From Escherichia phage LYE-01, in the sequence record PQ303785.1: 64,000 nucleotides of DNA. The stretch is one strand, 5' to 3'. Shown one piece after another: positions 4,930 through 57,151 of the stretch (positions are counted from its first letter, which is position 1; every line of letters begins with the position of its first letter). A model generated the notes under the pieces. It had not been told where the DNA came from. It saw only the letters and a program-made list of their open reading frames with translations, and searched no databases. Both the position numbers and the translations under genes were made by a program.

Positions 4930-5301
4930 ATGTTTAAAATCGGTAAGAAATATCGTGTTCGCGAAGGTGAAGAAAAGAAATATCTACTTTCTTCTATTTA
5001 TAGGAATAGTTCTATTAATACTGTAATATCTACAAGCGAATTTATCGTTGAAGATATGAAAGGTCATAATGTTACAATGATTAGTACAGCATCTGGAAAT
5101 GATGGAAAAATTCTTCACAGCTTTCAGAGTAATGTTCTAATTTATGATGAAGAATTTGACTTCTTCGAAGAAGTTACAGAAGATTTTGATTTTGGATGCA
5201 CCATCACTATGAAATCTGGTGACCCTCTTTCATTTACGGTTAAAGATGAAAGAAGTCGCTTGAGAATTATTAGTCTTCTTCAAGCCATTAAATTTGAGTG
5301 A
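4930..5301 (+). CDS. hypothetical protein
   Basis: ORF track, ATG 4930. Confidence 0.5.
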   Translation: MFKIGKKYRVREGEEKKYLLSSIYRNSSINTVISTSEFIVEDMKGHNVTMISTASGNDGKILHSFQSNVLIYDEEFDFFEEVTEDFDFGCTITMKSGDPLSFTVKDERSRLRIISLLQAIKFE

Positions 5302-5305
5302 AATT

Positions 5306-5566
5306 ATGAAATATGTTAATCGTTCTATCGCGGCATTAGTATTAGCAGTATCTTTAGTAGGATGTACTGATGCTGATAATGCAACCAAAGTTTTGTCTTC
5401 AAGTGGGTTTACTAATATTGAAATCACTGGATACAATTGGTTTGGTTGCTCTGAAAATGATTTCCAACACACTGGATTTCGTGCTATTGGACCTACTGGG
5501 CAGAAAGTAGAAGGAACCGTGTGTTCTGGTCTATTCTTCAAGGATTCGACTATCCGTTTTAAATAA
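5306..5566 (+). CDS. putative lipoprotein (lipobox LVGC)
   Basis: Track ORF starts TTG 5294; from ATG 5306: MKYVNRSIAALVLAVSLVGC, signal peptide plus lipobox cysteine. Confidence 0.5.
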   Translation: MKYVNRSIAALVLAVSLVGCTDADNATKVLSSSGFTNIEITGYNWFGCSENDFQHTGFRAIGPTGQKVEGTVCSGLFFKDSTIRFK

Positions 5567-5608: not shown

Positions 5609-5635
5609 ATTCCCGAAACCAAACGAGGATAAGTG

Positions 5636-7453
5636 ATGATTAAGAATGAAATTAAAATTCTGAGCGATATTGAACATATCAAAAAGCGTAGCGGCATGTA
5701 CATTGGCTCTTCCGCTAATGAAATGCATGAGCGCTTTCTGTTTGGTAAATGGGAAAGTGTTCAGTATGTACCTGGTCTTGTTAAGCTTATTGATGAAATT
5801 ATTGATAACTCAGTAGATGAAGGTATTCGTACTAAGTTTAAATTCGCAAATAAAATTAATGTTACTATCAAAAACAATCAAGTAACAGTTGAAGATAACG
5901 GTCGTGGTATTCCACAAGCGATGGTTAAAACACCTACCGGTGAAGAAATTCCTGGTCCAGTTGCTGCATGGACTATTCCAAAGGCAGGTGGTAACTTTGG
6001 TGATGATAAAGAACGCGTCACTGGTGGTATGAATGGTGTTGGTTCTAGTTTAACTAACATTTTTTCTGTGATGTTTGTCGGTGAAACTGGCGACGGTCAA
6101 AATAATATTGTAGTTCGTTGTTCAAATGGCATGGAAAATAAATCATGGGAAGATATTCCTGGAAAATGGAAAGGAACACGTGTTACTTTCATTCCTGATT
6201 TTATGTCATTTGAAACTAATGAGCTATCTCAGGTTTATCTTGACATTACACTAGATCGTCTCCAGACACTTGCGGTAGTTTATCCTGATATTCAATTTAC
6301 CTTTAATGGTAAAAAGGTTCAGGGTAATTTTAAGAAATATGCACGCCAATATGATGAACACGCTATCGTTCAAGAACAAGAAAATTGTTCTATTGCGGTT
6401 GGTCGTTCACCTGATGGTTTTCGTCAATTAACATACGTTAATAACATTCATACTAAGAATGGTGGCCATCACATTGACTGCGTTATGGATGATATTTGTG
6501 AAGACCTTATTCCACAAATCAAACGTAAGTTCAAAATTGATGTAACTAAAGCACGTGTTAAAGAATGTTTGACTATCGTTATGTTTGTTCGTGATATGAA
6601 AAACATGCGATTTGATTCTCAAACTAAAGAGCGTTTGACTTCTCCATTTGGTGAAATTCGTAGTCATATTCAGCTTGATGCTAAAAAGATTTCACGTGCT
6701 ATTTTAAATAATGAAGCAATTTTAATGCCAATCATTGAAGCTGCCTTGGCTCGTAAATTGGCGGCAGAAAAAGCAGCAGAAACTAAAGCAGCTAAAAAGG
6801 CTTCTAAAGCCAAGGTTCATAAACATATTAAAGCGAATCTTTGTGGTAAAGATGCTGATACTACTCTTTTCTTGACTGAGGGTGATTCTGCTATCGGATA
6901 TCTTATTGATGTTCGTGATAAAGAACTTCATGGTGGTTATCCATTGCGTGGTAAAGTTCTCAACAGTTGGGGTATGTCTTATGCTGATATGCTTAAAAAC
7001 AAAGAACTGTTTGATATTTGCGCAATCACTGGATTGGTTCTTGGTGAAAAGGCTGAAAACTTAAATTATCATAATATTGCAATTATGACCGATGCTGACC
7101 ATGATGGTCTAGGAAGCATTTATCCTTCTCTGCTCGGATTTTTTAGTAATTGGCCAGAACTGTTTGAACAAGGAAGAATTCGCTTCGTCAAAACTCCTGT
7201 AATCATCGCTCAGGTCGGTAAAAAACAAGAATGGTTTTATACAGTCGCTGAATATGAGAGTGCTAAAGATGCTCTACCTAAACATAGCATCCGTTATATT
7301 AAAGGACTTGGCTCTTTGGAAAAATCTGAATATCGTGAGATGATTCAAAACCCAGTATATGATGTTGTTAAACTTCCTGAGAATTGGAAAGAGCTTTTTG
7401 AAATGCTCATGGGAGATAATGCTGACCTTCGTAAAGAATGGATGAGCCAGTAG
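5636..7453 (+). CDS. 39: DNA topoisomerase II large subunit, uninterrupted 39+60 type
   Basis: 605 aa; GyrB-like ATPase N-terminus through Toprim region ending EWMSQ; DADHDG-LGSIY is continuous. Confidence 0.9.
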   Translation: MIKNEIKILSDIEHIKKRSGMYIGSSANEMHERFLFGKWESVQYVPGLVKLIDEIIDNSVDEGIRTKFKFANKINVTIKNNQVTVEDNGRGIPQAMVKTPTGEEIPGPVAAWTIPKAGGNFGDDKERVTGGMNGVGSSLTNIFSVMFVGETGDGQNNIVVRCSNGMENKSWEDIPGKWKGTRVTFIPDFMSFETNELSQVYLDITLDRLQTLAVVYPDIQFTFNGKKVQGNFKKYARQYDEHAIVQEQENCSIAVGRSPDGFRQLTYVNNIHTKNGGHHIDCVMDDICEDLIPQIKRKFKIDVTKARVKECLTIVMFVRDMKNMRFDSQTKERLTSPFGEIRSHIQLDAKKISRAILNNEAILMPIIEAALARKLAAEKAAETKAAKKASKAKVHKHIKANLCGKDADTTLFLTEGDSAIGYLIDVRDKELHGGYPLRGKVLNSWGMSYADMLKNKELFDICAITGLVLGEKAENLNYHNIAIMTDADHDGLGSIYPSLLGFFSNWPELFEQGRIRFVKTPVIIAQVGKKQEWFYTVAEYESAKDALPKHSIRYIKGLGSLEKSEYREMIQNPVYDVVKLPENWKELFEMLMGDNADLRKEWMSQ

Positions 7454-14038: not shown

Positions 14039-15367
14039 ATGCAACTGAATAATCGCGATTTAAAAAGTATCATTGATAATGAAGCATTGGCTTATGCTAT
14101 GTACACGGTTGAAAATCGTGCTATTCCAAATATGATTGATGGATTTAAGCCAGTTCAACGATTTGTTATCGCTCGAGCTCTTGATTTGGCGCGGGGAAAT
14201 AAAGATAAGTTTCACAAACTCGCTTCTATTGCAGGTGGTGTAGCTGACCTTGGATATCATCATGGCGAAAACTCTGCACAAGATGCGGGGGCTTTGATGG
14301 CTAACACTTGGAATAATAACTTTCCTTTGTTAGATGGTCAAGGAAACTTTGGTTCTCGTACCGTTCAAAAAGCAGCGGCAAGCCGTTATATTTTTGCTCG
14401 TGTAAGTAAAAATTTCTATAACGTATATAAAGATACTGAATATGCTCCGGTACATCAAGATAAAGAACACATTCCTCCTGCTTTCTATTTGCCTATTATT
14501 CCTACTGTTCTTCTTAATGGTGTTTCCGGTATTGCAACTGGTTATGCAACTTACATTCTTCCTCATAGTGTTTCTTCTGTCAAGAAAGCTGTACTACAAG
14601 CTCTTCAAGGAAAGAAAGTAACTAAACCGAAGGTAGAATTCCCAGAATTTCGTGGTGAAGTCGTTGAGATTGACGGGCAATATGAAATTCGTGGAACATA
14701 TAAGTTTACTTCACGAACTCAAATGAATATCACTGAGATTCCGTATAAGTATGATCGTGAAACTTATGTGAGTAAAATCTTAGACCCGCTTGAAGATAAG
14801 GGCTTCATTACATGGGATGATGCTTGCGGTGAGCATGGTTTTGGCTTTAAAGTTAAATTCCGCAAAGAATATTCTTTGAGCGATAACGAAGAAGAACGCC
14901 ATGCAAAAATTATGAAAGACTTTGGGTTGATTGAGCGTCGTTCCCAAAATATTACAGTCATCAACGAGAAAGGAAAGTTACAAGTTTACGATAACGTAGT
15001 TGATTTAATTAAAGACTTCGTTGAAGTTCGTAAAACTTATGTCCAAAAACGAATTGATAACAAAATCAAAGAAACTGAATCAGCATTTCGTTTAGCCTTT
15101 GCCAAGGCGCATTTCATTAAGAAAGTAATTTCAGGTGAAATCGTTGTACAGGGTAAAACTCGTAAAGAACTGACCGAAGAACTTTCTAAAATTGATATGT
15201 ATTCTTCTTATGTTGATAAACTAGTTGGAATGAATATTTTTCATATGACTTCCGACGAAGCAAAGAAACTTGCTGAAGAAGCTAAAGCTAAGAAAGAAGA
15301 AAACGAATATTGGAAAACTACTGATGTAGTTACAGAATACACCAAAGATTTAGAGGAAATCAAATGA
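14039..15367 (+). CDS. 52: DNA topoisomerase II medium subunit (GyrA-like)
   Basis: 442 aa; breakage-reunion domain motifs; T4 gp52 length. Confidence 0.9.
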   Translation: MQLNNRDLKSIIDNEALAYAMYTVENRAIPNMIDGFKPVQRFVIARALDLARGNKDKFHKLASIAGGVADLGYHHGENSAQDAGALMANTWNNNFPLLDGQGNFGSRTVQKAAASRYIFARVSKNFYNVYKDTEYAPVHQDKEHIPPAFYLPIIPTVLLNGVSGIATGYATYILPHSVSSVKKAVLQALQGKKVTKPKVEFPEFRGEVVEIDGQYEIRGTYKFTSRTQMNITEIPYKYDRETYVSKILDPLEDKGFITWDDACGEHGFGFKVKFRKEYSLSDNEEERHAKIMKDFGLIERRSQNITVINEKGKLQVYDNVVDLIKDFVEVRKTYVQKRIDNKIKETESAFRLAFAKAHFIKKVISGEIVVQGKTRKELTEELSKIDMYSSYVDKLVGMNIFHMTSDEAKKLAEEAKAKKEENEYWKTTDVVTEYTKDLEEIK

Positions 15368-19025: not shown

Positions 19026-19055
19026 AGACCCTCCTTTTAAGGATATTTATTCAAA

Positions 19056-19835
19056 TTATACTCTTGGACCATATATTGCTCCAACGTTTTGCCATGTCGG
19101 TGTAGACCCTATGACGGCATAACCAGCAGCACCACCGTTATATTCTGTACCGTTCCCATGAATATTACATCTACCTCCTGCTGAGCCAACTTCACCGCCA
19201 TTCCCGCCTGTATATACCCAAAGAGACCCCTCACCGACAGATCCTGCACCCGGAGCGGAAATGGTGCCAGCGGTTGCACCAGCACCCATATGAGAGGAAG
19301 ACCCGCCAGCACCGAATGGGCGACCACCACCACCACCAAATGATAGTCTACCGTAGTTACCGCCGCCGCCACCGCCACCGCCGCCTGCAATAGCTCCACC
19401 ATTATTAATTCTTAGTCTCCCACCAATATCGTTTTGAATACAATGACCTCCAGCTGAGCCAGGACTATTGCTACCGCCATTACCGCCACGTCCATACATC
19501 GTTACGCCGTGTATATTCAACTGAACATATTCATTCGGTGTATCTCCGTACATGAAGAATAAAGGAACATCTTTAGAATATGATACTAAATCTCCAGTGA
19601 TATTAAACACTATAGGTGTACTACCTGCCTCAAAACATCTATCTCGGAACCATTGACCATTGAAGTTATGGTCTGCTCCAAGTGTATGAATAATTTCTCT
19701 TGAGCGACCTGCAAATTGACTCATCCAGCAAGGAACACCCAATCTTAATTGACCAGCTGCTTGACTCATCCAGCGCTGACCCGTTTCATTTACGGCTGAA
19801 CTTCCAATCCAGCCAGGAACTCCAACTACTGCCAT
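19056..19835 (-). CDS. 38: long-tail-fibre adhesin gp38, T2 type with glycine-rich motifs
   Basis: 259 aa; poly-Gly runs between variable segments; immediately downstream of gene 37. Confidence 0.8.
19320..19390 (-). repeat. glycine-codon low-complexity runs within gene 38
   Basis: + strand CCACCACCACC... and CCGCCGCCGCCACCGCC... encoding poly-Gly. Confidence 0.8.
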
Positions 19836-19850
19836 AATTTATACTCCAAA

Positions 19851-19865
19851 GGGGGCATTTCCCCC
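19851..19865 (-). other. GC hairpin between genes 37 and 38
   Basis: GGGGG-CATTT-CCCCC in the 36-nt spacer. Confidence 0.4.
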
Positions 19866-19871
19866 TTGTTG

Positions 19872-22800
19872 TTAGAATTTAAAATATTTACTAATTTTGC
19901 GAGCAATTTTAGTAAAGAGAGGCGTTTTCAATTCTTTAATTTCTTCACTCATTTCCTGAATAGCCTTAATTAAAAGAGCATTCACTGTAGAGTTAGAAAT
20001 TGTTAAAATCTCTTCTGGGTTATCAAGAGATCCGACATTAGAAGTGCTAACAGCTTCCGGTAAAATTTCTTGTAAATCCTGCGCGATAATACCAATCTCA
20101 TGTGCGATGACTTCTCGGTCAGAAAGAGACTTAACTTTATCGTAGGTTTTAACTTTTAGTTTATTTACCTTATCTACCGCATTTTCTTCGTAGTCTTCAA
20201 CGTTAATTTTCAGACGACGGTCGGAACGAATATAAACATCGTTACAGTAAACCGACGCACTAGATGTGAAATCGCCATTTGCAGCCCATGAATACCAGCC
20301 GCCTTTGTTCATATGCATCATTACGGTAGCTTGACCACCGCCAGCATGAACACCCATTGCCGCAAGATGATCAACACCCCAATGAGTTGCTTTCCAAATT
20401 GAATATGCTCGGGTTTGTGAATCCTGACAATCTAAGAGAATACCAGCAGGACGGTTGCGCCAGTCATCCCAAGCACCACCAAAAACATCACCACGGATAA
20501 GAGCGTATTCACTATTATAAGGAACTTGCTCTCCCGCTTTAATCATTGCACCCTGGAAGTGATGACTAAATGAACCCCCATGATTATTTCGTATATGTAA
20601 AATACCCTCATCTGTAGCCCAGATAACAGCCTTTTCTGCATCGCTATCATCTCTAAACCAGATATGGCGAGCACCAGTTGAGTTTTTGATGGTTATTCCG
20701 CTAGGTCCATGCACGGTCAAAGAACCAGCAACATCAAACATCAAACTGTTATCTGTCCTGCGTTCAGCATAGAAGTGATAACCTTTTGAATCGCCGACTT
20801 CCAATACTGCCGCGCGACCAACTTCTGAATTTCCCCAATTGTTGATAGAGAATCGTTCAGAGCTATTATTCATCTGATTTAGGTATAATGTACCATCAGT
20901 GAATGTTTCGCCAAAGAAACGAGTTTTAATTGCACCTGTCGCTAAAGTACGTTCAGTGGAAAAATGGGCGCCTTGACTATCTTCTAACTGGATGATGTTA
21001 TCACGAGCGTTATTGCTATCACCCCAATGGTTAAATTTAAAATAATCTCGTGATCCTAAACGTCCGGCGTCAAAAGTCATCAAGCCTTTCATGTTAATAT
21101 CACCGCCGACCAGAACGTTATCCGGGAAGTTAACTGTACCATCAGCATTAAATCTTGATGTATGGCCCTGTGTTCCATCTTCTTTGATATGGTGTATCAC
21201 GAATGTACCTGAATTAATTTCAGTACCTAAAGACCAAACTGCTTTACCTTGAAGGTATTTTTGCTTAACAATCGGATAATATTTGTTTACAGCATCATCA
21301 TCGATTTCCTGGAAAATAGGAGCCGCTTGAACATATTGAATATCATAACCACCAGCGCCAGCGCCATGACCAACAAATTTAATATAGCCGTTCGCAGCGA
21401 ACGTATTGTAACTTGATTGTAAATCTGGAATAGTAACTTTACCGGTATCTAAAGCCATACTAAACGGGCGAAGTGGACCGATATCGCCATGTTTACCTTC
21501 ACCATAAGCAGTTGGAATAATATGAAGACTGCCTTCTGAACGTCTAAAAATAGCTCCATAATCTGCGTTCCAAATGCGAAGACCATTTACAGCATTTGTC
21601 GCGATTTCACCGGCTGCGCTGATTGTACCGTCAAATGTAGCATTTTTTACTACTGTAAAGTTTTCATTAACAATCTGGGTGCCATTTATAACCGATTCGA
21701 TTTTACCCGCAGTTGTTCGTTGAATATAATGCATCCATCCAATATCATCAGAAATTTCCATGACATTTTTACGGGTGCCTTCACTTGGATTAGTAAAAGT
21801 ATTTCCCCAAACAGCTATATACATGTTATCAACGGAGCTTTGACCCATGGTATAGCCTTTAAACATTAAAGTTGAATTATTATTTCTACCATCAATATTA
21901 ACCGAACCACCAATAACGTCAATATTGCCTGGAGTAACTAACAAACCGCCATGAGTATTAATGTTTGTGGTACCCTTACCGCGGAAATAGTGATGATAGT
22001 TACCGCCTTGATAATATCCTAAAAGAGTTTGACCGTCACCATACGCGTTATTATCATGGTAAGTAACAACAGTGGCTAATGCATAGTTTTCTGTCGGTGG
22101 CGTTGTCATAAGAATCCCATCCGGAGAATAACCCATAACCATTTTTCTAAGGCTTTGTGTTTCCGCAGGACCGTAAATGAAAGTTCTTGTTCCGTTGTTT
22201 ACTGCATGAAAATATCCGTCCTGATGCCATTTAAATCCGGTATCATTATCGCCAATAGCAATAGAACCTTTACCTAAGGCTGAATATGTCATAGGACTTG
22301 ATTCCATACCTACTGCAATTGAATGGCCTGCTTGAAGCCCACCGGAATAAGAAAATGACAACATGTAATCAGTAGGGGTTGAACCAGAATACCAACTGAT
22401 GCCGTTATTTTCACAAATTTCATGGAGCATTGCGGCCGCTGGGTCGGTACGTACAATGCGCAAATAGTTTTTATCTGTGTCAGAATTATTATTTGCTAAT
22501 GAAGATATATCATAATCGCCCGTCTTCTTCCCATCTGTAATAACTTTATCGGTCAGAATTTGTGGAGACGAAATAGATTTCCATGCTGATACTTCAGGTG
22601 AAGTAAATAGGCCACTGCCTGAAAATGCATAGGTGCTTTCATCACCAGCGGCGTAGTCTTGAACCCTGATATTAAGTACTTGTGTAGTTAATCCATCATT
22701 AGCCGGGGCATAAATTATTCCGCGTTCGCGGTTATTGCCATCGAAAAAACGAACATGCGCTGTACCTGAACTTTTTGTAATAAGTTCTCCGCCCTCAGTC

Positions 22801-23114
22801 ATAATCTGCCCGGCGGCAATAATATCGCGAGTTACTCGAGCAATACCAGTTAAATTAAAATTACCTGTCTGAGTGAAAGCGCCATTTAAAGTATAATCAC
22901 CAGTTTGATTATAGTTTCCTATATGAATAACATTCCCGTCAATGCTACCGCCCTTAGCAAAACCAAGATCAATGATATTTCCTTGGTCGTCTTTAGTAAA
23001 AAGTACGCGGTCTTTTAAGTTTATAGCCAATTCACCTTCGGCTAATACTGAAGCGGCAGGACGTGCTCCTGCAGTTTTGCTTCTTTTAAATTGTATTTGT
23101 TTTAAAGTAGCCAT
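19872..23114 (-). CDS. 37: long tail fibre distal subunit gp37
   Basis: 1080 aa; fibre repeats; C-terminal SDRRLK chaperone-like segment. Confidence 0.85.
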   Translation of the reverse strand: MATLKQIQFKRSKTAGARPAASVLAEGELAINLKDRVLFTKDDQGNIIDLGFAKGGSIDGNVIHIGNYNQTGDYTLNGAFTQTGNFNLTGIARVTRDIIAAGQIMTEGGELITKSSGTAHVRFFDGNNRERGIIYAPANDGLTTQVLNIRVQDYAAGDESTYAFSGSGLFTSPEVSAWKSISSPQILTDKVITDGKKTGDYDISSLANNNSDTDKNYLRIVRTDPAAAMLHEICENNGISWYSGSTPTDYMLSFSYSGGLQAGHSIAVGMESSPMTYSALGKGSIAIGDNDTGFKWHQDGYFHAVNNGTRTFIYGPAETQSLRKMVMGYSPDGILMTTPPTENYALATVVTYHDNNAYGDGQTLLGYYQGGNYHHYFRGKGTTNINTHGGLLVTPGNIDVIGGSVNIDGRNNNSTLMFKGYTMGQSSVDNMYIAVWGNTFTNPSEGTRKNVMEISDDIGWMHYIQRTTAGKIESVINGTQIVNENFTVVKNATFDGTISAAGEIATNAVNGLRIWNADYGAIFRRSEGSLHIIPTAYGEGKHGDIGPLRPFSMALDTGKVTIPDLQSSYNTFAANGYIKFVGHGAGAGGYDIQYVQAAPIFQEIDDDAVNKYYPIVKQKYLQGKAVWSLGTEINSGTFVIHHIKEDGTQGHTSRFNADGTVNFPDNVLVGGDINMKGLMTFDAGRLGSRDYFKFNHWGDSNNARDNIIQLEDSQGAHFSTERTLATGAIKTRFFGETFTDGTLYLNQMNNSSERFSINNWGNSEVGRAAVLEVGDSKGYHFYAERRTDNSLMFDVAGSLTVHGPSGITIKNSTGARHIWFRDDSDAEKAVIWATDEGILHIRNNHGGSFSHHFQGAMIKAGEQVPYNSEYALIRGDVFGGAWDDWRNRPAGILLDCQDSQTRAYSIWKATHWGVDHLAAMGVHAGGGQATVMMHMNKGGWYSWAANGDFTSSASVYCNDVYIRSDRRLKINVEDYEENAVDKVNKLKVKTYDKVKSLSDREVIAHEIGIIAQDLQEILPEAVSTSNVGSLDNPEEILTISNSTVNALLIKAIQEMSEEIKELKTPLFTKIARKISKYFKF

Positions 23115-31103: not shown

Positions 31104-31111
31104 TTGCTTAT

Positions 31112-31119
31112 TATAAATA
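31112..31119 (+). promoter_or_regulatory. late promoter (TATAAATA) for gene 32
   Basis: Exact TATAAATA; MotA-box-like TTGCTTA 31104-31110 and TATAAT 31123-31128 are adjacent. Confidence 0.55.
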
Positions 31120-31136
31120 GATTATAATTATCTCAC

Positions 31137-31202
31137 TGACCAGCTATGAGGTCATACATCGTCATAGCACCAACTGTTAATTAAATTAAAAAGGAAATAA
31201 AA
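31137..31202 (+). promoter_or_regulatory. gene 32 translational operator: 5' pseudoknot plus A/U-rich leader
   Basis: TGACC-AGCTATGA-GGTCA-TACATCG-TCATAGC (two interleaved stems), then TTAATTAAATTAAAAAGGAAATAAAA before the ATG. Confidence 0.75.
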
Positions 31203-33216: not shown

Positions 33217-33552
33217 ATGTCTGACATTCACGTAACTGGAATTGCCCAAGTAAACATCCGTTGCCAATTTAAAACTGTACCTGGGGTGACTCATATTACT
33301 TTATCACACGACCCATATTCTCGTGGAAGACAGATAACTGGCGTAATTAAGTTTTTCGGTGGAATTGGCGGAAACGAATTTACTATAGGCGATGACGAAA
33401 TTGTTGGCTGTAAACTAAAAGTTCAAAAGGGCGTGTTAGAACTTTTTAGTGATGAAGTTTTTGATGAAATCTCACGAGCAGTTAATAAAGGAATGTTAAC
33501 GTTAATCAAAATGATTAAAGCCAGTGGATATGTTCCCGATCCTTTATATTAG
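33217..33552 (+). CDS. hypothetical protein
   Basis: ORF track. Confidence 0.5.
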   Translation: MSDIHVTGIAQVNIRCQFKTVPGVTHITLSHDPYSRGRQITGVIKFFGGIGGNEFTIGDDEIVGCKLKVQKGVLELFSDEVFDEISRAVNKGMLTLIKMIKASGYVPDPLY

Positions 33553-33560
33553 GAGATAAT

Positions 33561-34387
<827 letters not shown>

Positions 34388-34407: not shown

Positions 34408-34755
34408 ATGAACTTTAATTATTATCCTATTCTATTAGAAAAAGACGCAAAACAACCAAAATGGCAGGGTCCTCAGTTTATTAAAGGCGTCTATCAATTA
34501 GTAGTTCCTAAAGACAAGATTTATAGTAGTTGTTTCACTGAATCCGCTTGCAGTATTTTCGGTAATAGTTCTCCGTATTGGAATTTTGATATAAAGCTGG
34601 ATAGAAATATTGATATTTGGTTGAAAGCTATGGATATTGACAATATCACGTTTGATGAGAATAATTATCATATTATTGGTCGTTTTTCCAAACGTGGTAA
34701 AGAATTATATTTCACGCCTGAAATTGAAAGAAAATTTGACGCTAAACCGTATTGA
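34408..34755 (+). CDS. hypothetical 115-aa protein between frd and td
   Basis: Track ORF starts GTG 34396; first ATG 34408; no recognisable motif. Confidence 0.45.
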   Translation: MNFNYYPILLEKDAKQPKWQGPQFIKGVYQLVVPKDKIYSSCFTESACSIFGNSSPYWNFDIKLDRNIDIWLKAMDIDNITFDENNYHIIGRFSKRGKELYFTPEIERKFDAKPY

Positions 34756-34800: not shown

Positions 34801-35661
34801 ATGAAACAATACCAAGATTTAATTAAAGACATTTTTGAAAATGGCTATGAAACTGATGACCGAACAGGCACAGGAACAATTGCTTTGTTCGGTACTAAAT
34901 TACGCTGGGATTTAAGTAAAGGTTTTCCTGCAGTAACAACTAAGAAGCTCGCCTGGAAAGCTTGCATTGCTGAGCTAATATGGTTTTTATCAGGAAGCAC
35001 AAATGTCAATGATTTACGATTAATTCAGCATGATTCATTAATTCAAGGCAAAACAGTCTGGGATGAAAATTACGAAAATCAAGCAAAAGATTTAGGATAC
35101 CATAGCGGTGAACTTGGTCCAATTTATGGAAAACAATGGCGTGATTTTGGCGGTGTAGACCAAATTATAGAAGTTATTGATCGTATTAAAAAACTGCCGA
35201 ATGATAGGCGTCAAATTGTTTCTGCATGGAATCCAGCTGAACTTAAATATATGGCATTACCGCCTTGTCATATGTTCTATCAGTTTAATGTGCGTAATGG
35301 CTATTTGGATTTGCAGTGGTATCAAAGAAGTGTTGACGTGTTCTTGGGCTTGCCATTCAACATTGCATCATATGCTGCATTAGTTCATATTGTAGCTAAG
35401 ATGTGTAATCTTATTCCAGGAGATTTGATATTTTCTGGTGGTAATACTCATATCTATATGAATCACGTAGAACAATGTAAAGAAATTTTGCGTCGTGAAC
35501 CTATGGATTTATGCGAATTACAATTAAAATTTCCAGATGAATTTGATGAATGGGACACAGAATCACAGGTATTTTGGTTGAGTCAATTCGCAAAGCCGCA
35601 TAATTTTGTTCTTAACAACTATGTATCTCACCCTCCTATTAAAGGAAAAATGGCGGTGTAA
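34801..35661 (+). CDS. td: thymidylate synthase, uninterrupted (no intron)
   Basis: 286 aa continuous ORF; LPPCH active-site motif. Confidence 0.9.
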   Translation: MKQYQDLIKDIFENGYETDDRTGTGTIALFGTKLRWDLSKGFPAVTTKKLAWKACIAELIWFLSGSTNVNDLRLIQHDSLIQGKTVWDENYENQAKDLGYHSGELGPIYGKQWRDFGGVDQIIEVIDRIKKLPNDRRQIVSAWNPAELKYMALPPCHMFYQFNVRNGYLDLQWYQRSVDVFLGLPFNIASYAALVHIVAKMCNLIPGDLIFSGGNTHIYMNHVEQCKEILRREPMDLCELQLKFPDEFDEWDTESQVFWLSQFAKPHNFVLNNYVSHPPIKGKMAV

Positions 35662-38483: not shown

Positions 38484-38534
38484 TATAATTTGACTCACGG
38501 ACGAGTCACTATCTATTAACTAAGTGGAAAATTT

Positions 38535-39713
38535 ATGAGCACAGTTTTTAATACAAATCCAGTTGATGTTTTAAAAGAACCTATGTTCTTCGGTTCAGGT
38601 CTTGGTATTGCGCGTTACGATATTCAACGTCATAAAGTTTTTGAAGATTTAACTGAAAAGCAGTTGTCATTTTTCTGGCGTCCTGAAGAAGTAAACTTGA
38701 TGATGGATGCTGCGCAATTTAACAAGCTTCCTCAGTATCAGCAAGATATTTTTACTAATAACCTGAAGTATCAATCACTTCTAGATAGCATTCAGGGTCG
38801 TGCACCGTCTGCAGTACTTATGTCATTAATTTCAGATCCAAGTCTTGATACATGGGTTGCTACATGGACTTTTAGTGAAACTATTCACAGCCGTTCATAT
38901 ACTCATATCATGCGAAATCTTTATACTGATCCATCAAAGGTATTTGATGAGATTGTACTAGATAAAGCTATTATGAAACGTGCTGAGTCCATTGGTCGCT
39001 ATTACGATGATGTTCTTAAAAAGACCCGTGAATGGGAAAATGCTAAAGAATTTGTAGAACTAGCTAAAGAATCTCCTGATGCTGATTTTCGTTTAAATCG
39101 AGCTATTAAACAAGAAGCCGAAGCTAAACGAGCACTAATGAAATCTCTTTATCTTTGCCTCCATGTAATCAATGCATTGGAAGCTATTCGTTTTTATGTA
39201 TCTTTCGCATGTACCTTTAACTTCCATAAGAACATGGAAATCATGGAAGGTAATGCTAAGATTATGAAGTTCATTGCGCGTGATGAGCAACTTCATCTTA
39301 AAGGCACTCAATATATTATTCGTCAACTTCAACTTGGCACTGACGGTGATGAATGGGTTAAAATTGCTCAAGAGTGTGAACAAGAAGCAGTTGATATTTT
39401 CATGGAAGTTAACCGTCAAGAAAAAGACTGGGCAGTTCATTTATTTAAAGATGGCGATGTTCCCGGATTAAATACAAATAGCATGTGGAGCTTTATTGAT
39501 TACTTAACTGTATCTCGTATGAAACATTGTGGTCTTCCATGTCCAATTACCGATGCTCCGGTTAAACATCCATATCCTTGGATTCGTGAATACCTTAATT
39601 CTGATAATGTTCAATCCGCGCCACAAGAAGTAGAACTGTCATCTTACCTTGTAGCACAGATTGATAATGATGTTGATGATAAAGTTATGATGAGTTTTAA
39701 AAAATATTTTTAA
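38535..39713 (+). CDS. nrdB: ribonucleotide reductase small subunit, uninterrupted
   Basis: 392 aa continuous ORF; di-iron ligand motifs. Confidence 0.9.
   Translation: MSTVFNTNPVDVLKEPMFFGSGLGIARYDIQRHKVFEDLTEKQLSFFWRPEEVNLMMDAAQFNKLPQYQQDIFTNNLKYQSLLDSIQGRAPSAVLMSLISDPSLDTWVATWTFSETIHSRSYTHIMRNLYTDPSKVFDEIVLDKAIMKRAESIGRYYDDVLKKTREWENAKEFVELAKESPDADFRLNRAIKQEAEAKRALMKSLYLCLHVINALEAIRFYVSFACTFNFHKNMEIMEGNAKIMKFIARDEQLHLKGTQYIIRQLQLGTDGDEWVKIAQECEQEAVDIFMEVNRQEKDWAVHLFKDGDVPGLNTNSMWSFIDYLTVSRMKHCGLPCPITDAPVKHPYPWIREYLNSDNVQSAPQEVELSSYLVAQIDNDVDDKVMMSFKKYF

Positions 39714-42759: not shown

Positions 42760-42763
<4 letters not shown>
42533..42763 (+). CDS. hypothetical protein
   Basis: ORF track. 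Confidence 0.45.
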
Positions 42764-43984
<1,221 letters not shown>

Positions 43985-44715: not shown

Positions 44716-45243
44716 ATGAGCGAATGGTTTGAAGAAGATAAGGTTTATCGCTTTAAAGCTGGATATAAAGATATTTTTAATGAAACTTGCGGAGCTAATA
44801 AACGAATTGCACAGTTTATTGGGGAAAATTCATTTAAAGTAAAAATAGATCCTGCGAAAAATGTTATTAGCATTAAACGTGAAATTGATGATTGCTGGTA
44901 TAAAGCTGTTGATGTAATGGGTGAATCCTATAAAGTTAGTCCGTTATTTTCAATTGCTTATATGTTAGAATATTCTTTTTTCGAAGAAGTTCAAAAAGAT
45001 GATTCTGTCAGTAAATTTGAAATTAAAGCTGATAAAGAAATTAAATGGAAAGTAGTAGGTATTACTGGTTGTATGTTCTATATCTATGCTCAAACTGATA
45101 CGAAGGAAGAAGCTAAAAAGAAAGCTCTAGAATATCTTGAAGAGTATGAAGAAGGTCCGGTAATGATTACTCAAGATGCCGAATTAGTTTCTGTCAAATT
45201 AGTTAAAAACGTTGAAAGTAAGGAGCTTGGATCAACATGCTAA
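44716..45243 (+). CDS. hypothetical 175-aa protein
   Basis: ORF track; early promoter and GAGGA SD upstream. Confidence 0.5.
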   Translation: MSEWFEEDKVYRFKAGYKDIFNETCGANKRIAQFIGENSFKVKIDPAKNVISIKREIDDCWYKAVDVMGESYKVSPLFSIAYMLEYSFFEEVQKDDSVSKFEIKADKEIKWKVVGITGCMFYIYAQTDTKEEAKKKALEYLEEYEEGPVMITQDAELVSVKLVKNVESKELGSTC

Positions 45244-52973: not shown

Positions 52974-52996
52974 GAATAAACACTAGAGAGGATATG

Positions 52997-55090
52997 ATGG
53001 AACTCATTACAGAATTATTTGACGAAGATACTACTCTTCCGATTACAAACTTAAATCCAAAGAAGAAAATACCACAAATTTTTTCAGTTCATGTTGATGA
53101 TGCAATTGAACAACCAGGCTTTCGTTTATGTACCTATACATCTGGAGGTGATACTAATCGCGATTTAAAAATGGGCGATAAAATGATGCATATTGTTCCT
53201 TTTACATTAACTGCTAAAGGTTCAATTGCTAAATTAAAAGGTCTCGGTCCAAGTCCAATTAATTACATCAATTCAGTTTTTACTGTTGCAATGCAGACGA
53301 TGCGTCAGTATAAAATTGATGCCTGTATGCTTCGTATTCTTAAGTCTAAAACTGCTGGTCAAGCTCGACAAATTCAAGTTATTGCTGATAGACTTATCCG
53401 TAGTCGTTCAGGTGGCAGATACGTCCTTCTTAAGGAACTCTGGGATTACGATAAAAAGTACGCATATATTCTTATACATCGCAAAAATGTATCACTAGAA
53501 GACATTCCAGGAGTTCCGGAAATTAGTACCGAGCTTTTTACTAAAGTCGAATCGAAGGTCGGCGATGTTTATATCAATAAAGATACTGGAGCTCAAGTAA
53601 CTAAAAATGAAGCAATTGCAGCATCTATTGCGCAAGAAAATGATAAACGTTCTGACCAAGCTGTAATCGTTAAAGTTAAAATTTCCCGTAGAGCAATTGC
53701 GCAAAGTCAATCATTAGAATCTTCTAGATTTGAAAGCGAATTATTCCAGAAGTATGAATCTACCGCAGCCAATTTTAATAAGCCTGCTACTGCTCCTTTA
53801 ATTCCAGAAGCAGAAGAAATGAAGCTTGGAATTAATTCATTAGCTTCTAAAACTAAGGCAGCAAAAATCATTGCCGAAGGAACCGCAGATGAACTTCACT
53901 ATGACTATAAATTCTTTTCAAAAAGTGAGGTTAATGAAGTTTCTGAAAAAATTAAAGATGTAATTCTTAATGCGATTAAAAATGAACCAACTACTTCAAT
54001 AAAATGTTTAGAGAAATACGCAGCAGCTGTTAATCAATTCTTTGAAGAATATAAAGATAATTGGCTTGATAAACATAATAAAACTCGTAAAGGACAGCCA
54101 GATGAAGTCTGGGAAGAAATAACTAAAAATTCCTGGAACGCAGCAAAAACTAAATTCCTCAAACGAATGATTTATAGCTTTTCTGGAATTGGTGCAGGTC
54201 CAATGATTGATATTACCATTGCCCGTGATGGTTCTAAATACACTCCATCGCAAAAGCGCGGAATTAGAGAGTATTGCGGATCAGGATATACTGACATCAA
54301 TAATCTTCTTTTAGGCCGCTACAATCCAGAACGATATGATGTAATGAGTGAAAAAGAAATTGAATCTGCGATAAATAATTTAGATTCAGCTTTTGAAAAT
54401 GGTGACCGTATACCAGAAGGCATTACAGTTTATCGTGCTCAAAGTATGACTGCTCCTATATATGAAGCACTAGTTAAAAATAAAGTGTTCTATTTCAGAA
54501 ATTTTGTATCTACTTCTTTAACTCCTATCATTTTTGGACGTTTTGGAATTACACATGCTGGTATCGGTCTTTTAGAACCAGAAGCTCGCAATGAATTAAC
54601 AGTTGATAAAAATGAAGAAGGAATAACTATTAATCCAAACGAAATAAGAGCGTATAAAGAAAATCCTGAATACGTTAAAGTTCAAATAGGATGGGCTATT
54701 GATGGAGCTCATAAAGTTAATGTTGTATATCCAGGAAGTCTCGGAATAGCAACAGAAGCTGAAGTTATTCTACCACGCGGATTGATGGTCAAAGTTAATA
54801 AAATAACTGATGCTTCTAATAATGATGGAACAACATCTAATAATACAAAACTCATTCAAGCTGAAGTTATGACTACGGAAGAACTCACCGAATCGGTAAT
54901 TTATGACGGTGACCGTCTAATGGAAACTGGTGAATTGGTTGCAATGACAGATGATATTGAAATAGAAGACAGAGTTGACTTTGCATCATTTGTTTCATCA
55001 AATGTTAAACAGAAAGCAGAATCATCTCTCGGAATTATTGCGTCTTGCATAGATATTACAAACATGCCTTACAAGTTCGTTCAAGGATAA
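52997..55090 (+). CDS. alt: ADP-ribosyltransferase Alt (head-packaged)
   Basis: MELITELFDEDTTLPITNL N-terminus; R (YRAQ), STS (FVSTSLTP) and ExE (EAEVILPRG) motifs; late promoter upstream. Confidence 0.85.
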   Translation: MELITELFDEDTTLPITNLNPKKKIPQIFSVHVDDAIEQPGFRLCTYTSGGDTNRDLKMGDKMMHIVPFTLTAKGSIAKLKGLGPSPINYINSVFTVAMQTMRQYKIDACMLRILKSKTAGQARQIQVIADRLIRSRSGGRYVLLKELWDYDKKYAYILIHRKNVSLEDIPGVPEISTELFTKVESKVGDVYINKDTGAQVTKNEAIAASIAQENDKRSDQAVIVKVKISRRAIAQSQSLESSRFESELFQKYESTAANFNKPATAPLIPEAEEMKLGINSLASKTKAAKIIAEGTADELHYDYKFFSKSEVNEVSEKIKDVILNAIKNEPTTSIKCLEKYAAAVNQFFEEYKDNWLDKHNKTRKGQPDEVWEEITKNSWNAAKTKFLKRMIYSFSGIGAGPMIDITIARDGSKYTPSQKRGIREYCGSGYTDINNLLLGRYNPERYDVMSEKEIESAINNLDSAFENGDRIPEGITVYRAQSMTAPIYEALVKNKVFYFRNFVSTSLTPIIFGRFGITHAGIGLLEPEARNELTVDKNEEGITINPNEIRAYKENPEYVKVQIGWAIDGAHKVNVVYPGSLGIATEAEVILPRGLMVKVNKITDASNNDGTTSNNTKLIQAEVMTTEELTESVIYDGDRLMETGELVAMTDDIEIEDRVDFASFVSSNVKQKAESSLGIIASCIDITNMPYKFVQG

Positions 55091-55093
55091 ATC

Positions 55094-57151
55094 ATGGAAC
55101 TTATTACAGAATTATTTGACGGCGCTTCGGCGCCGGTTGTTAACTTAAATCCTAAGCATAAAATACCTCAAATTTTTGCTATTCAAGCAGGCGAAGAAAG
55201 CGTGCTTCCTGGATTTAGATTTTGTACATACACCTCTGGCGGTGATACAAATAAAAACGTTAAGCCAGGCGATAAAATGATGCATATCGTAATGATAGGT
55301 GTCAATGAGAAACTATCATTAGTTAAACTTAGAAACTTGGGTGGAAATCCAATTGGTGTCATTAATGCGGTTTTTGATACTGCTCTTCAGACAATGAAAC
55401 AATACAAAATTGACGCATGCTTATTCCGCGTACTAAAGAGTAAAACAAATGGTGCAGCTCGTCAAATGCAAGTTATTGCCGACCGTTTAGTACGTACTAA
55501 AGGAGCAGGTCGATATGTTCTTTTAAAGGAAATCTGGGATTACGATAAAAAGTACGCATATATTATGGTTTACCGTAAAAATGCTAATTTAGAAGACATT
55601 CCAGGTGTACCTCCTATTTCAACTGAGTTATTCACAAAAGTTGAATCAAAGGTTGGTGATGTTTATGTAGATGTTAAAACAGGTAATGCTGTTCCTAAAG
55701 CTGTTGCTGTTGCTGCTTCTATTGCTTTAGAAAATGATAAGCGCACGGATCAAGCTGTTATTCAGAAAACTAAAATTAGTCGTCGGTTAGCAGCACAAGC
55801 TCAATATTCTACTGTCGATGCTTCACTTCAGGGTGATAGCTTCGCTGCTAAGAAATATCAAGAGTTTGAATCTAAAGTTCCGGTATATAAAGCAGAAGGA
55901 CCAATGAACTCTGGCGTTATTCAGGTTGGTTCAAACTTCAGCAAAGGAGCTATCGGTGGTATGAGAAGTGCTTCCCGTTTTAAATCTAGTGATTATGAAT
56001 TAGAAAGCTTCCGAAATCATATTGCATTGGCTCATGCGCGTTTACGTGATCCATCTATCAAGTTACAGAGCGATATATCATATCAAGGTTCTCAAGAATA
56101 TTTAAAGAATAAAGAATTTTTTGATTATAAAACTGATAAAATTTTAAGTGATCTTGCTGACATTAATATTTCTAATAGCTTTGATGTTATTAAGAAAATT
56201 GTCAATGATTTAGTTAAAGGTTCTAAAGCCACACCAGATGAAAAGGTAGCTATTGTTCAATTTGTCATGAATGGCGTTTATAAATTGATTAATGAGTCTG
56301 CTTCTCAAGCGTATGAATATGCAAGTACTGAAGTAACTCCAAAAGGATTAACTCAGGCTGAGTCTGATGTAATTGAAGATTATTGTGCAGATTCATATGT
56401 TGAAATGAACTCGTTCCTTTTAGGTAAACCGGATTCTACTCGTGAAGAATACATGGAACGAGCTATTAAACACATCGAGACAATGGATTCTGCCTTTGCC
56501 AAAGGATCAGTTCTTCCTCCAGGAACTACACTTTACCGTGGACAAGAAGTTACCTTTAAAACTTTACGTCATAATATTGAAAATAAAATGTTCTACTTCA
56601 AGAACTTCGTATCCACATCGCTTAAACCAAATATCTTCGGTGAGTATGGTAAAAACTATATGGCTCTAGATGATTCCGGCGCAGTATTTTCTGGTGAAGG
56701 AGAAGGTTCAGTTGACGCAGAAGATTTGATGCATATGGGCAGTCACTCTGCTTATGCGAATGAAGATGCTGAAACTAGCGTGGGTATGGTAATTAAAGGA
56801 GCTGAGCGAATCAAAGTTATCGTTCCAGGACATTTATCAGGATTTCCATCAGAAGCTGAAGTTATTTTACCGCGTGGAATTTTGCTGAAGATTAATAAAG
56901 TGAGTACGTACATGATGAAAGAAACTGCTTATAATAAGTATCTAATCGAAGGCACAATCGTTCCTCCTTCTGAACAATTAGAAGAATCGGTATATGATGG
57001 CGACCATCTAATGGAAACTGGTGAAGTTCGTCCAATGGCTGGATTTAATCAATTCCTTGTAGAAGAATCAAAAGAAGAGGAAAACGAAGTTTCTCAAATC
57101 TTGGCTTCTTTGGTTAACATCAACGGAATGTCTAAAAAGTTCAAGATGTAG
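55094..57151 (+). CDS. Alt paralog, second ADP-ribosyltransferase
   Basis: 685 aa; N-terminal ~200 aa nearly collinear with Alt; YRGQ / FVSTSLKP / EAEVILPRG motifs intact. Confidence 0.75.
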   Translation: MELITELFDGASAPVVNLNPKHKIPQIFAIQAGEESVLPGFRFCTYTSGGDTNKNVKPGDKMMHIVMIGVNEKLSLVKLRNLGGNPIGVINAVFDTALQTMKQYKIDACLFRVLKSKTNGAARQMQVIADRLVRTKGAGRYVLLKEIWDYDKKYAYIMVYRKNANLEDIPGVPPISTELFTKVESKVGDVYVDVKTGNAVPKAVAVAASIALENDKRTDQAVIQKTKISRRLAAQAQYSTVDASLQGDSFAAKKYQEFESKVPVYKAEGPMNSGVIQVGSNFSKGAIGGMRSASRFKSSDYELESFRNHIALAHARLRDPSIKLQSDISYQGSQEYLKNKEFFDYKTDKILSDLADINISNSFDVIKKIVNDLVKGSKATPDEKVAIVQFVMNGVYKLINESASQAYEYASTEVTPKGLTQAESDVIEDYCADSYVEMNSFLLGKPDSTREEYMERAIKHIETMDSAFAKGSVLPPGTTLYRGQEVTFKTLRHNIENKMFYFKNFVSTSLKPNIFGEYGKNYMALDDSGAVFSGEGEGSVDAEDLMHMGSHSAYANEDAETSVGMVIKGAERIKVIVPGHLSGFPSEAEVILPRGILLKINKVSTYMMKETAYNKYLIEGTIVPPSEQLEESVYDGDHLMETGEVRPMAGFNQFLVEESKEEENEVSQILASLVNINGMSKKFKM

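Follow-up and report, generated by a model that had tools for sequence, protein, structure and literature searches.

Gene 39 of Escherichia phage LYE-01 is an unsplit topoisomerase large-subunit gene of the T2/T6 type

The type IIA topoisomerase of T-even phages relaxes DNA without supercoiling it. In T4-related phages other than T4, the large subunit is encoded by one ORF (PMC3014915), and the enzyme of the T2/T6 type is a heterotetramer of gp39 and gp52 (PMC11461880). The gp39 of T6 has been purified as a single polypeptide that relaxes DNA together with gp52, its structure has been determined by cryo-EM (chain C of PDB 8YLU, 8YO5 and 8YOD), and the metal-binding residues of the enzyme are E415, D486 and D488 (PMC11461880). 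In T4 itself, the MobA element splits the gene into 39 and 60 and adds a 50-nt translational bypass, the "hop". Manning & Atkins 2022 describe an element of 1097-1106 nt inserted at nt 1399-1419 of the gene, with 64 nt deleted in phage HY01; in clade 1 its 3' end lies 9 nt beyond D490/G491 (bioRxiv 10.1101/2022.08.31.505936). According to the summary of Bonocora 2011 given there, intact MobA nicks the T2 gene some 20 nt 5' of the hop position, in the region equivalent to homR, T2 acquires mobA together with the split and the hop in mixed infection, and invaded genomes are protected by the hop and not by the homR polymorphisms (bioRxiv 10.1101/2022.08.31.505936).

Here we describe the corresponding locus in a stretch of 64,000 nucleotides from Escherichia phage LYE-01 (PQ303785.1), hereafter called the window, by comparison with the reference sequences of T4 (NC_000866), T2 (AP018813), T6 (AP018814) and HY01 (KF925357, in which mobA is intact). 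The whole window is a segment of a Tequatrovirus genome that is collinear with T4 in reversed orientation, and the locus is 98.1% identical to its best database relatives. We conclude with great confidence that the ORF at 5636-7453 represents gene 39 of a Tequatrovirus in intact and unsplit form, a "parental" allele without the MobA element. This unsplit form is the majority and ancestral state of the gene and has already been described for T2 and T6. The features on which the analysis rests are collected in Table 1.

Table 1. Positions in the window of the topoisomerase genes, their landmarks and the sites equivalent to the T4 disruptions
Feature	Position	Strand	Basis and remarks
Shine-Dalgarno sequence, GAGGA	5625-5629	+	Read from the sequence; ATG 6 nt downstream
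Gene 39 (Topo2L), unsplit large ATPase/TOPRIM subunit of a T-even type IIA DNA topoisomerase	5636-7453	+	ORF, Pfam, PDB 8YLU, T2/T6
Counterpart of the 5' boundary of the MobA element in T4/HY01	7053/7054	+	Follows Ala473 (GEKA); gene nt 1418/1419
Parental segment deleted and replaced by the MobA element, 64 nt	7054-7117	+	Alignment; the element brings homR, the hop and 9 further nt
DADHDG, aa 486-491, TOPRIM DxD metal-binding motif	7091-7108	+	Sequence
Position equivalent to the bypass ("hop"), Gly491 and Leu492 contiguous (GGT, CTA)	7108/7109	+	Explicit alignment anchored on the hop
Gene 52, GyrA-like medium subunit, 442 aa, partner of gp39	14039-15367	+	Pfam DNA_topoisoIV, E = 1.6e-76; collinear with T4 gene 52

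One open frame and its predicted product

Read directly, gene 39 runs without an internal stop from an ATG at 5636 to a TAG at 7451-7453, a distance of 605 codons on the plus strand. Its product has a calculated mass of 68.3 kDa, begins with MIKNEIK as does T4 gp39, and ends with LRKEWMSQ, immediately before the TAG, as does T4 gp60; the initial annotation had described a single 605-codon ORF with a product of about 68 kDa that ends in EWMSQ like gp60, and it was right in each of these respects. A GTG lies in frame one codon 5' of the ATG, at 5633, and the start at 5636 is the one that agrees with the N-terminus of T4 gp39.

The Pfam domains found in the product are HATPase_c at aa 47-149 (E = 2e-09, 38.3 bits against a cut-off of 26.4), the DNA_gyraseB transducer at aa 250-384 (E = 1.4e-13) and TOPRIM_C at aa 519-604. 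The individual motifs are likewise present, comprising those of the GHKL ATPase (IDNSVDE at aa 56, DNGRGIP at 87 and GGMNGVG at 130), the QTK loop of the transducer (QTKERL at aa 329) and, within a single contiguous TOPRIM domain, the metal-binding motifs EGDSA (aa 415) and DADHDG (aa 486). The protein thus has the features that define a type IIA B subunit, namely a GHKL ATPase, a transducer and a contiguous TOPRIM, together with an A-type partner encoded in the same genome. The best match in the PDB is the T6 gp39 of 8YLU chain C, which is identical at 603 of 605 positions with all 605 residues covered, the two exceptions being D173 (T in T6) and Q526 (H in T6). From this identity we infer that the LYE-01 protein would form a heterotetramer with gp52, and enzymatic activity is to be expected from the same near-identity to a characterized enzyme. 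In the arrangement that we propose, gene 39 would be translated into one 605-aa chain composed of GHKL ATPase, transducer and complete TOPRIM (E415...D486xD488), which would join gp52 in a two-subunit heterotetramer as in T2 and T6, and recoding would be neither needed nor signalled.

The codons of DADHDG are followed immediately by those of LGSIY (7109-7123). This continuity had been claimed in the initial annotation for positions 7081-7110; the peptide is indeed encoded without a break, but the interval was about 10 nt off and too short, and the true one is 7091-7123. Around the junction the codons of Gly491 and Leu492 are GGT (7106-7108) and CTA (7109-7111), whereas the take-off codon of T4 is GGA. 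Latent recoding signals in gene 39 were also considered and were rejected because GGA take-off and landing codons and an in-frame stop are both absent.

Breakpoints, target segment and distribution of the unsplit gene

Breakpoints were placed by ungapped comparisons of the flanks and by an explicit alignment of the window, T2, T6, T4 and HY01 anchored on the hop. In the ungapped comparison, identity up to 7053 is 95.9% to T4 and 97.1% to HY01 and beyond this point it is about 30%, and T4-type homology resumes at 7118. The ORF of the window is continuous through both sites at which the T4 gene is disrupted, the split between 39 and 60 and the hop, which lies 55 nt downstream of the split. The T4 gene therefore has two distinct disruptions, so that the earlier notion of one equivalent junction is correct as regards continuity and has to be amended as regards a single site, the split corresponding to 7053/7054 and the hop to 7108/7109. 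In place of the 64-nt segment, T4 carries an element of 1117 nt and HY01 one of 1106 nt, which contains a 43-aa tail of gp39, mobA, a 30-aa leader of gp60, homR (a diverged copy of the target), the 50-nt hop and 9 diverged nt; the T4 element additionally holds 60.1, and mobA is degraded in T4 and intact in HY01, where it encodes a MobA of 272 aa. The breakpoints and the 64-nt segment found here match the published values for the MobA element, as does the length of the HY01 element.

None of this element was detected in the window. T4 mobA, 60.1 and the hop gave no match by blastn against the whole 64-kb window, and the intact 272-aa MobA of HY01 gave none by tblastn even at E<=10. The initial annotation had proposed an alignment against T4 gene 39, mobA and gene 60, and in this alignment the ORF is continuous while mobA, 60.1 and the hop have no counterpart in the window. 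Further features of the T4 type that were sought at the window locus, namely two ORFs with CTE/NTE, an HNH endonuclease, matched GGA codons and a gap, are not present. The T4 reference itself (NC_000866) does show the split and the bypass that had been attributed to it, with codon 46 of gp60 (GGA, the Gly of DADHDG) followed by a TAG, a 50-nt gap and LGSIY, and the assignment of LYE-01 to the uninterrupted T2/T6-like state is supported by gap-free alignment to T2 and T6, with one and two amino acid differences, and by the lack of any match to the cassette.

The segment that the element replaces is informative in its own right. Within 7054-7117, the 48 nt before the hop site differ from T2 at three positions and from T6 at five, all of them synonymous, and are only 69% identical to the homR of T4/HY01, while the 9 nt after the hop position read CTAGGAAGC in the window, identical to T2 and T6, as against TTAGGTTCT in the element. 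The 64-nt segment is therefore of the parental T2/T6 type and not the element's own copy, homR. Since the target segment is parental, nothing points to a past invasion from which the element was lost imprecisely, and CTE/NTE remnants, homR-type polymorphisms and the 9 nt of the element type, which were sought at the locus as traces of invasion, were not found there. The parental allele of LYE-01 either has not received, or no longer carries, the MobA homing-endonuclease element of about 1.1 kb.

The second of these histories, in which a formerly invaded allele lost the element by "hit and run" or by secondary fusion, is one that we regard as improbable, with only a very small chance of being correct. 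Recombination among co-infecting T-even phages is frequent. Manning & Atkins describe progressive loss of the element, with hit-and-run or re-fused ORF clades (bioRxiv 10.1101/2022.08.31.505936). In LYE-01, however, there is no CTE/NTE remnant, the gene has the same length as gp39 of T2 and T6 and aligns to both without gaps, and both the 48 nt before the hop site and the 9 nt behind it are of the parental kind. The gene may also have been restored cleanly, through homologous recombination with a parental phage; such an event would be traceless and functionally without consequence.

To see how common the unsplit state is, we used a 400-nt junction query (6904-7303) centred on the junctions, which is too short to bridge an element of 1.05 kb. 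Within the phage collection, 467 records cover 80% or more of this query with a single piece, whereas in T4-type records, RB59 and HZ_ZJUN4 among them, the match begins only at query position 215 (equivalent to window position 7118) and forms a separate place. The T4 element (L001 2780-3800) was found in only 43 records of the same collection, and from these two counts roughly nine in ten sequenced relatives would have the unsplit gene. A query of 2.3 kb retrieved 515 records, a number that may include T4-type loci because pieces up to 1650 nt apart were joined. In some GenBank records the gene bears the label "gp60plus39" (ime09).

These data also bear on two other possibilities, that the long ORF is open by mere chance or that a T4-like split locus was collapsed during assembly, to which, taken together, we attach a negligible probability. 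An open frame of 605 codons is expected by chance at about 1e-20, given the base composition of the window and a stop probability of 0.073 per codon, and from end to end the product is nearly identical to a protein whose structure has been solved by experiment. The same contiguous junction recurs in the 467 independent records, and a collapsed T4-type locus would retain homR-type sequence, of which none is seen. We rule out both a chance ORF and an assembly artefact on the strength of the 8YLU match, the parental-type segment and the 467 records, and retain the reading of an intact parental gene 39.

Expected response to MobA and other loci of the window

The region that MobA would nick is inferred to lie at about 7088 in the window, inside the 64-nt segment, going by what is published on the T2 gene (bioRxiv 10.1101/2022.08.31.505936). 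With an undisrupted target present and the protective hop absent, the locus is expected to be a substrate of MobA, in line with the initial annotation, which had called it a natural recipient site for mobA-type homing. On co-infection with a phage that carries an active mobA it would be expected, judging from the sequence and from the published T2 experiments, to be nicked and converted.

The opposite outcome, an allele that resists MobA since synonymous changes near the nick site, notably the C at 7090, block recognition, seems very unlikely to us. It could draw on the three positions at which the 48 nt preceding the hop depart from T2 (window/T2: 7063 A/G, 7081 A/T and 7090 C/T, all synonymous and at wobble positions), one of which, 7090, is about 2 nt from the approximate nick position as reported, and on the 84-nt target, for which no identical copy was found among the phage records (best match 98.8%). 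Against it, the homR of T4 differs from the parental sequence by about 31%, has an A at the position equivalent to 7090 and is reportedly still nicked once the hop is removed, so that another base at this position is unlikely to confer resistance; moreover, the changes look like ordinary wobble-position drift of the kind found across hundreds of relatives. HNH homing endonucleases in general tolerate many substitutions. A resistant allele, if it were one, would enjoy immunity to the homing element without the cost of a bypass.

Other loci at which T4 carries mobile elements or their associated genes were inspected across the window. The td gene (34801-35661, plus strand) is one uninterrupted ORF of 286 aa that matches Pfam Thymidylat_synt over its full length; nothing in the window matches the 1-kb group I intron of T4 td with its I-TevI, and T4 homology jumps at 35348/35353. 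Similarly, nrdB (38535-39713, plus strand) is one ORF of 392 aa, the T4 nrdB group I intron of about 600 nt with I-TevIII is absent from the window, and homology jumps at 39208/39211. Only a 51-nt spacer (38484-38534) separates the nrdA stop from the nrdB start, and the homing endonuclease gene mobE and nrdB.1, which lie between nrdA and nrdB in T4, have no match in the window. The homing endonuclease gene segG, located between genes 59 and 32 in T4, is likewise without a match in the window, where a short spacer is found at about 31105-31139. Given the absence of the td and nrdB introns, mobE, nrdB.1 and segG, the unsplit gene 39 is part of a genome that is generally poor in such elements compared with T4.

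Further differences from T4 were noted near gene 39 and elsewhere. Between 39.2 and 39.1 there is an ORF of 123 aa (4930-5301, plus strand) with neither a T4 counterpart nor a Pfam match, and T6 has an ORF of equal length at the same place (L003 4600-4971). The 39.1 homologue itself (5306-5566, plus strand) is longer than the 65-aa 39.1 of T4, and its beginning resembles a lipoprotein signal (…LAVSLVGC); in one related record it is called a "putative lipoprotein". On the minus strand, 19051-22927 has no T4 DNA match across a 259-aa ORF (19056-19835) and the distal part of a 1080-aa tail-fibre ORF (19872-23114), and T4-type gp38 sequence has no match in this interval, a pattern that fits a gp38 adhesin and a gp37 tip of the T2 type and not a T4-type gp38. 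Two tandem ORFs of about 690 aa on the plus strand (52994-55090 and 55094-57151) match T4 alt, one of them well and the other at only 68-80% nucleotide identity, and look like a full-length pair of alt paralogues where T4 has alt and the short remnants alt.-1 and alt.-2. Finally, four plus-strand segments without a T4 DNA match (33217-33803, 34408-34755, 42760-43080 and 44716-45243) hold ORFs of 80-175 aa, and inspection by eye revealed no obvious endonuclease motifs in the small ORFs of these four segments.

Relation to the large subunits of T2, T6 and T4

For annotation, these results call for one CDS that lacks any join or bypass feature and is named "DNA topoisomerase II large subunit" (gp39, also 60plus39). 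As a MobA-free parental allele, the gene can be used as an outgroup or a recipient when MobA homing is studied or the gene 60 hop is traced to its origin. Beyond annotation its significance is small, given that hundreds of such alleles are in the databases and that the T6 protein has been structurally characterized.

The closest described relatives are the gp39 genes of T2 (AP018813 2447-4264) and T6 (AP018814), both of which have 1818 nt, the same length as in LYE-01, and align to it without gaps at 95.9% and 96.3% nucleotide identity, respectively. This divergence of about 4% is mostly synonymous: the predicted protein differs from T2 gp39 at one residue only (F70, which is L in T2) and from T6 gp39 at the two mentioned above. 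The layout of ATPase, transducer and TOPRIM, the E415/D486/D488 site and the gp52 partner are common to all three phages, and so are the neighbouring genes, with 39.1 upstream and rIIA.1 and rIIA downstream. Among cellular enzymes, GyrB, ParE and the N-terminal half of Topo II share the architecture of GHKL ATPase, transducer and TOPRIM, although the similarity is only distant (phmmer, 1e-59 to human Topo II beta/alpha and 1e-36 to E. coli GyrB); in contrast to the cellular and eukaryotic type IIA enzymes, the phage B subunit pairs with a short A subunit of 442 aa.

In T4, genes 39, mobA/60.1 and 60 (NC_000866 2458-5328) are together orthologous to the LYE-01 gene, with an identity of 95.9% in the 1418 nt at the 5' end and of 97.9% in the 336 nt at the 3' end, and across relatives that carry mobA the unsplit ORF is 96-99% identical outside the element. 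T4 and LYE-01 agree in the catalytic residues, in the peptide that joins DADHDG to LGSIY and in the C-terminal EWMSQ. Peculiar to T4 are a gp39 of 516 aa with a non-homologous tail of 43 aa, a gp60 of 160 aa with an extra leader of 30 aa, about 70 extra TOPRIM residues, and the TAG after Gly46 with its 50-nt gap between GGA take-off and landing codons. Just before the QTK loop (aa 325-328, window 6608-6619), the T4 reference gp39 also has RLIR in place of the RFDS shared by the window, T2 and T6; the T4 DNA shows compensating -1/+1 indels there (CGATTGATTCGTC against CGATTTGATTCTC), and RLIR is found in the T4 PDB construct as well. With respect to the parental Topo2L alleles treated in Manning & Atkins 2022 and to the T2 recipient of the homing experiments, gene 39 of LYE-01 is another member of the same group, with its own wobble-position variants in the MobA target.
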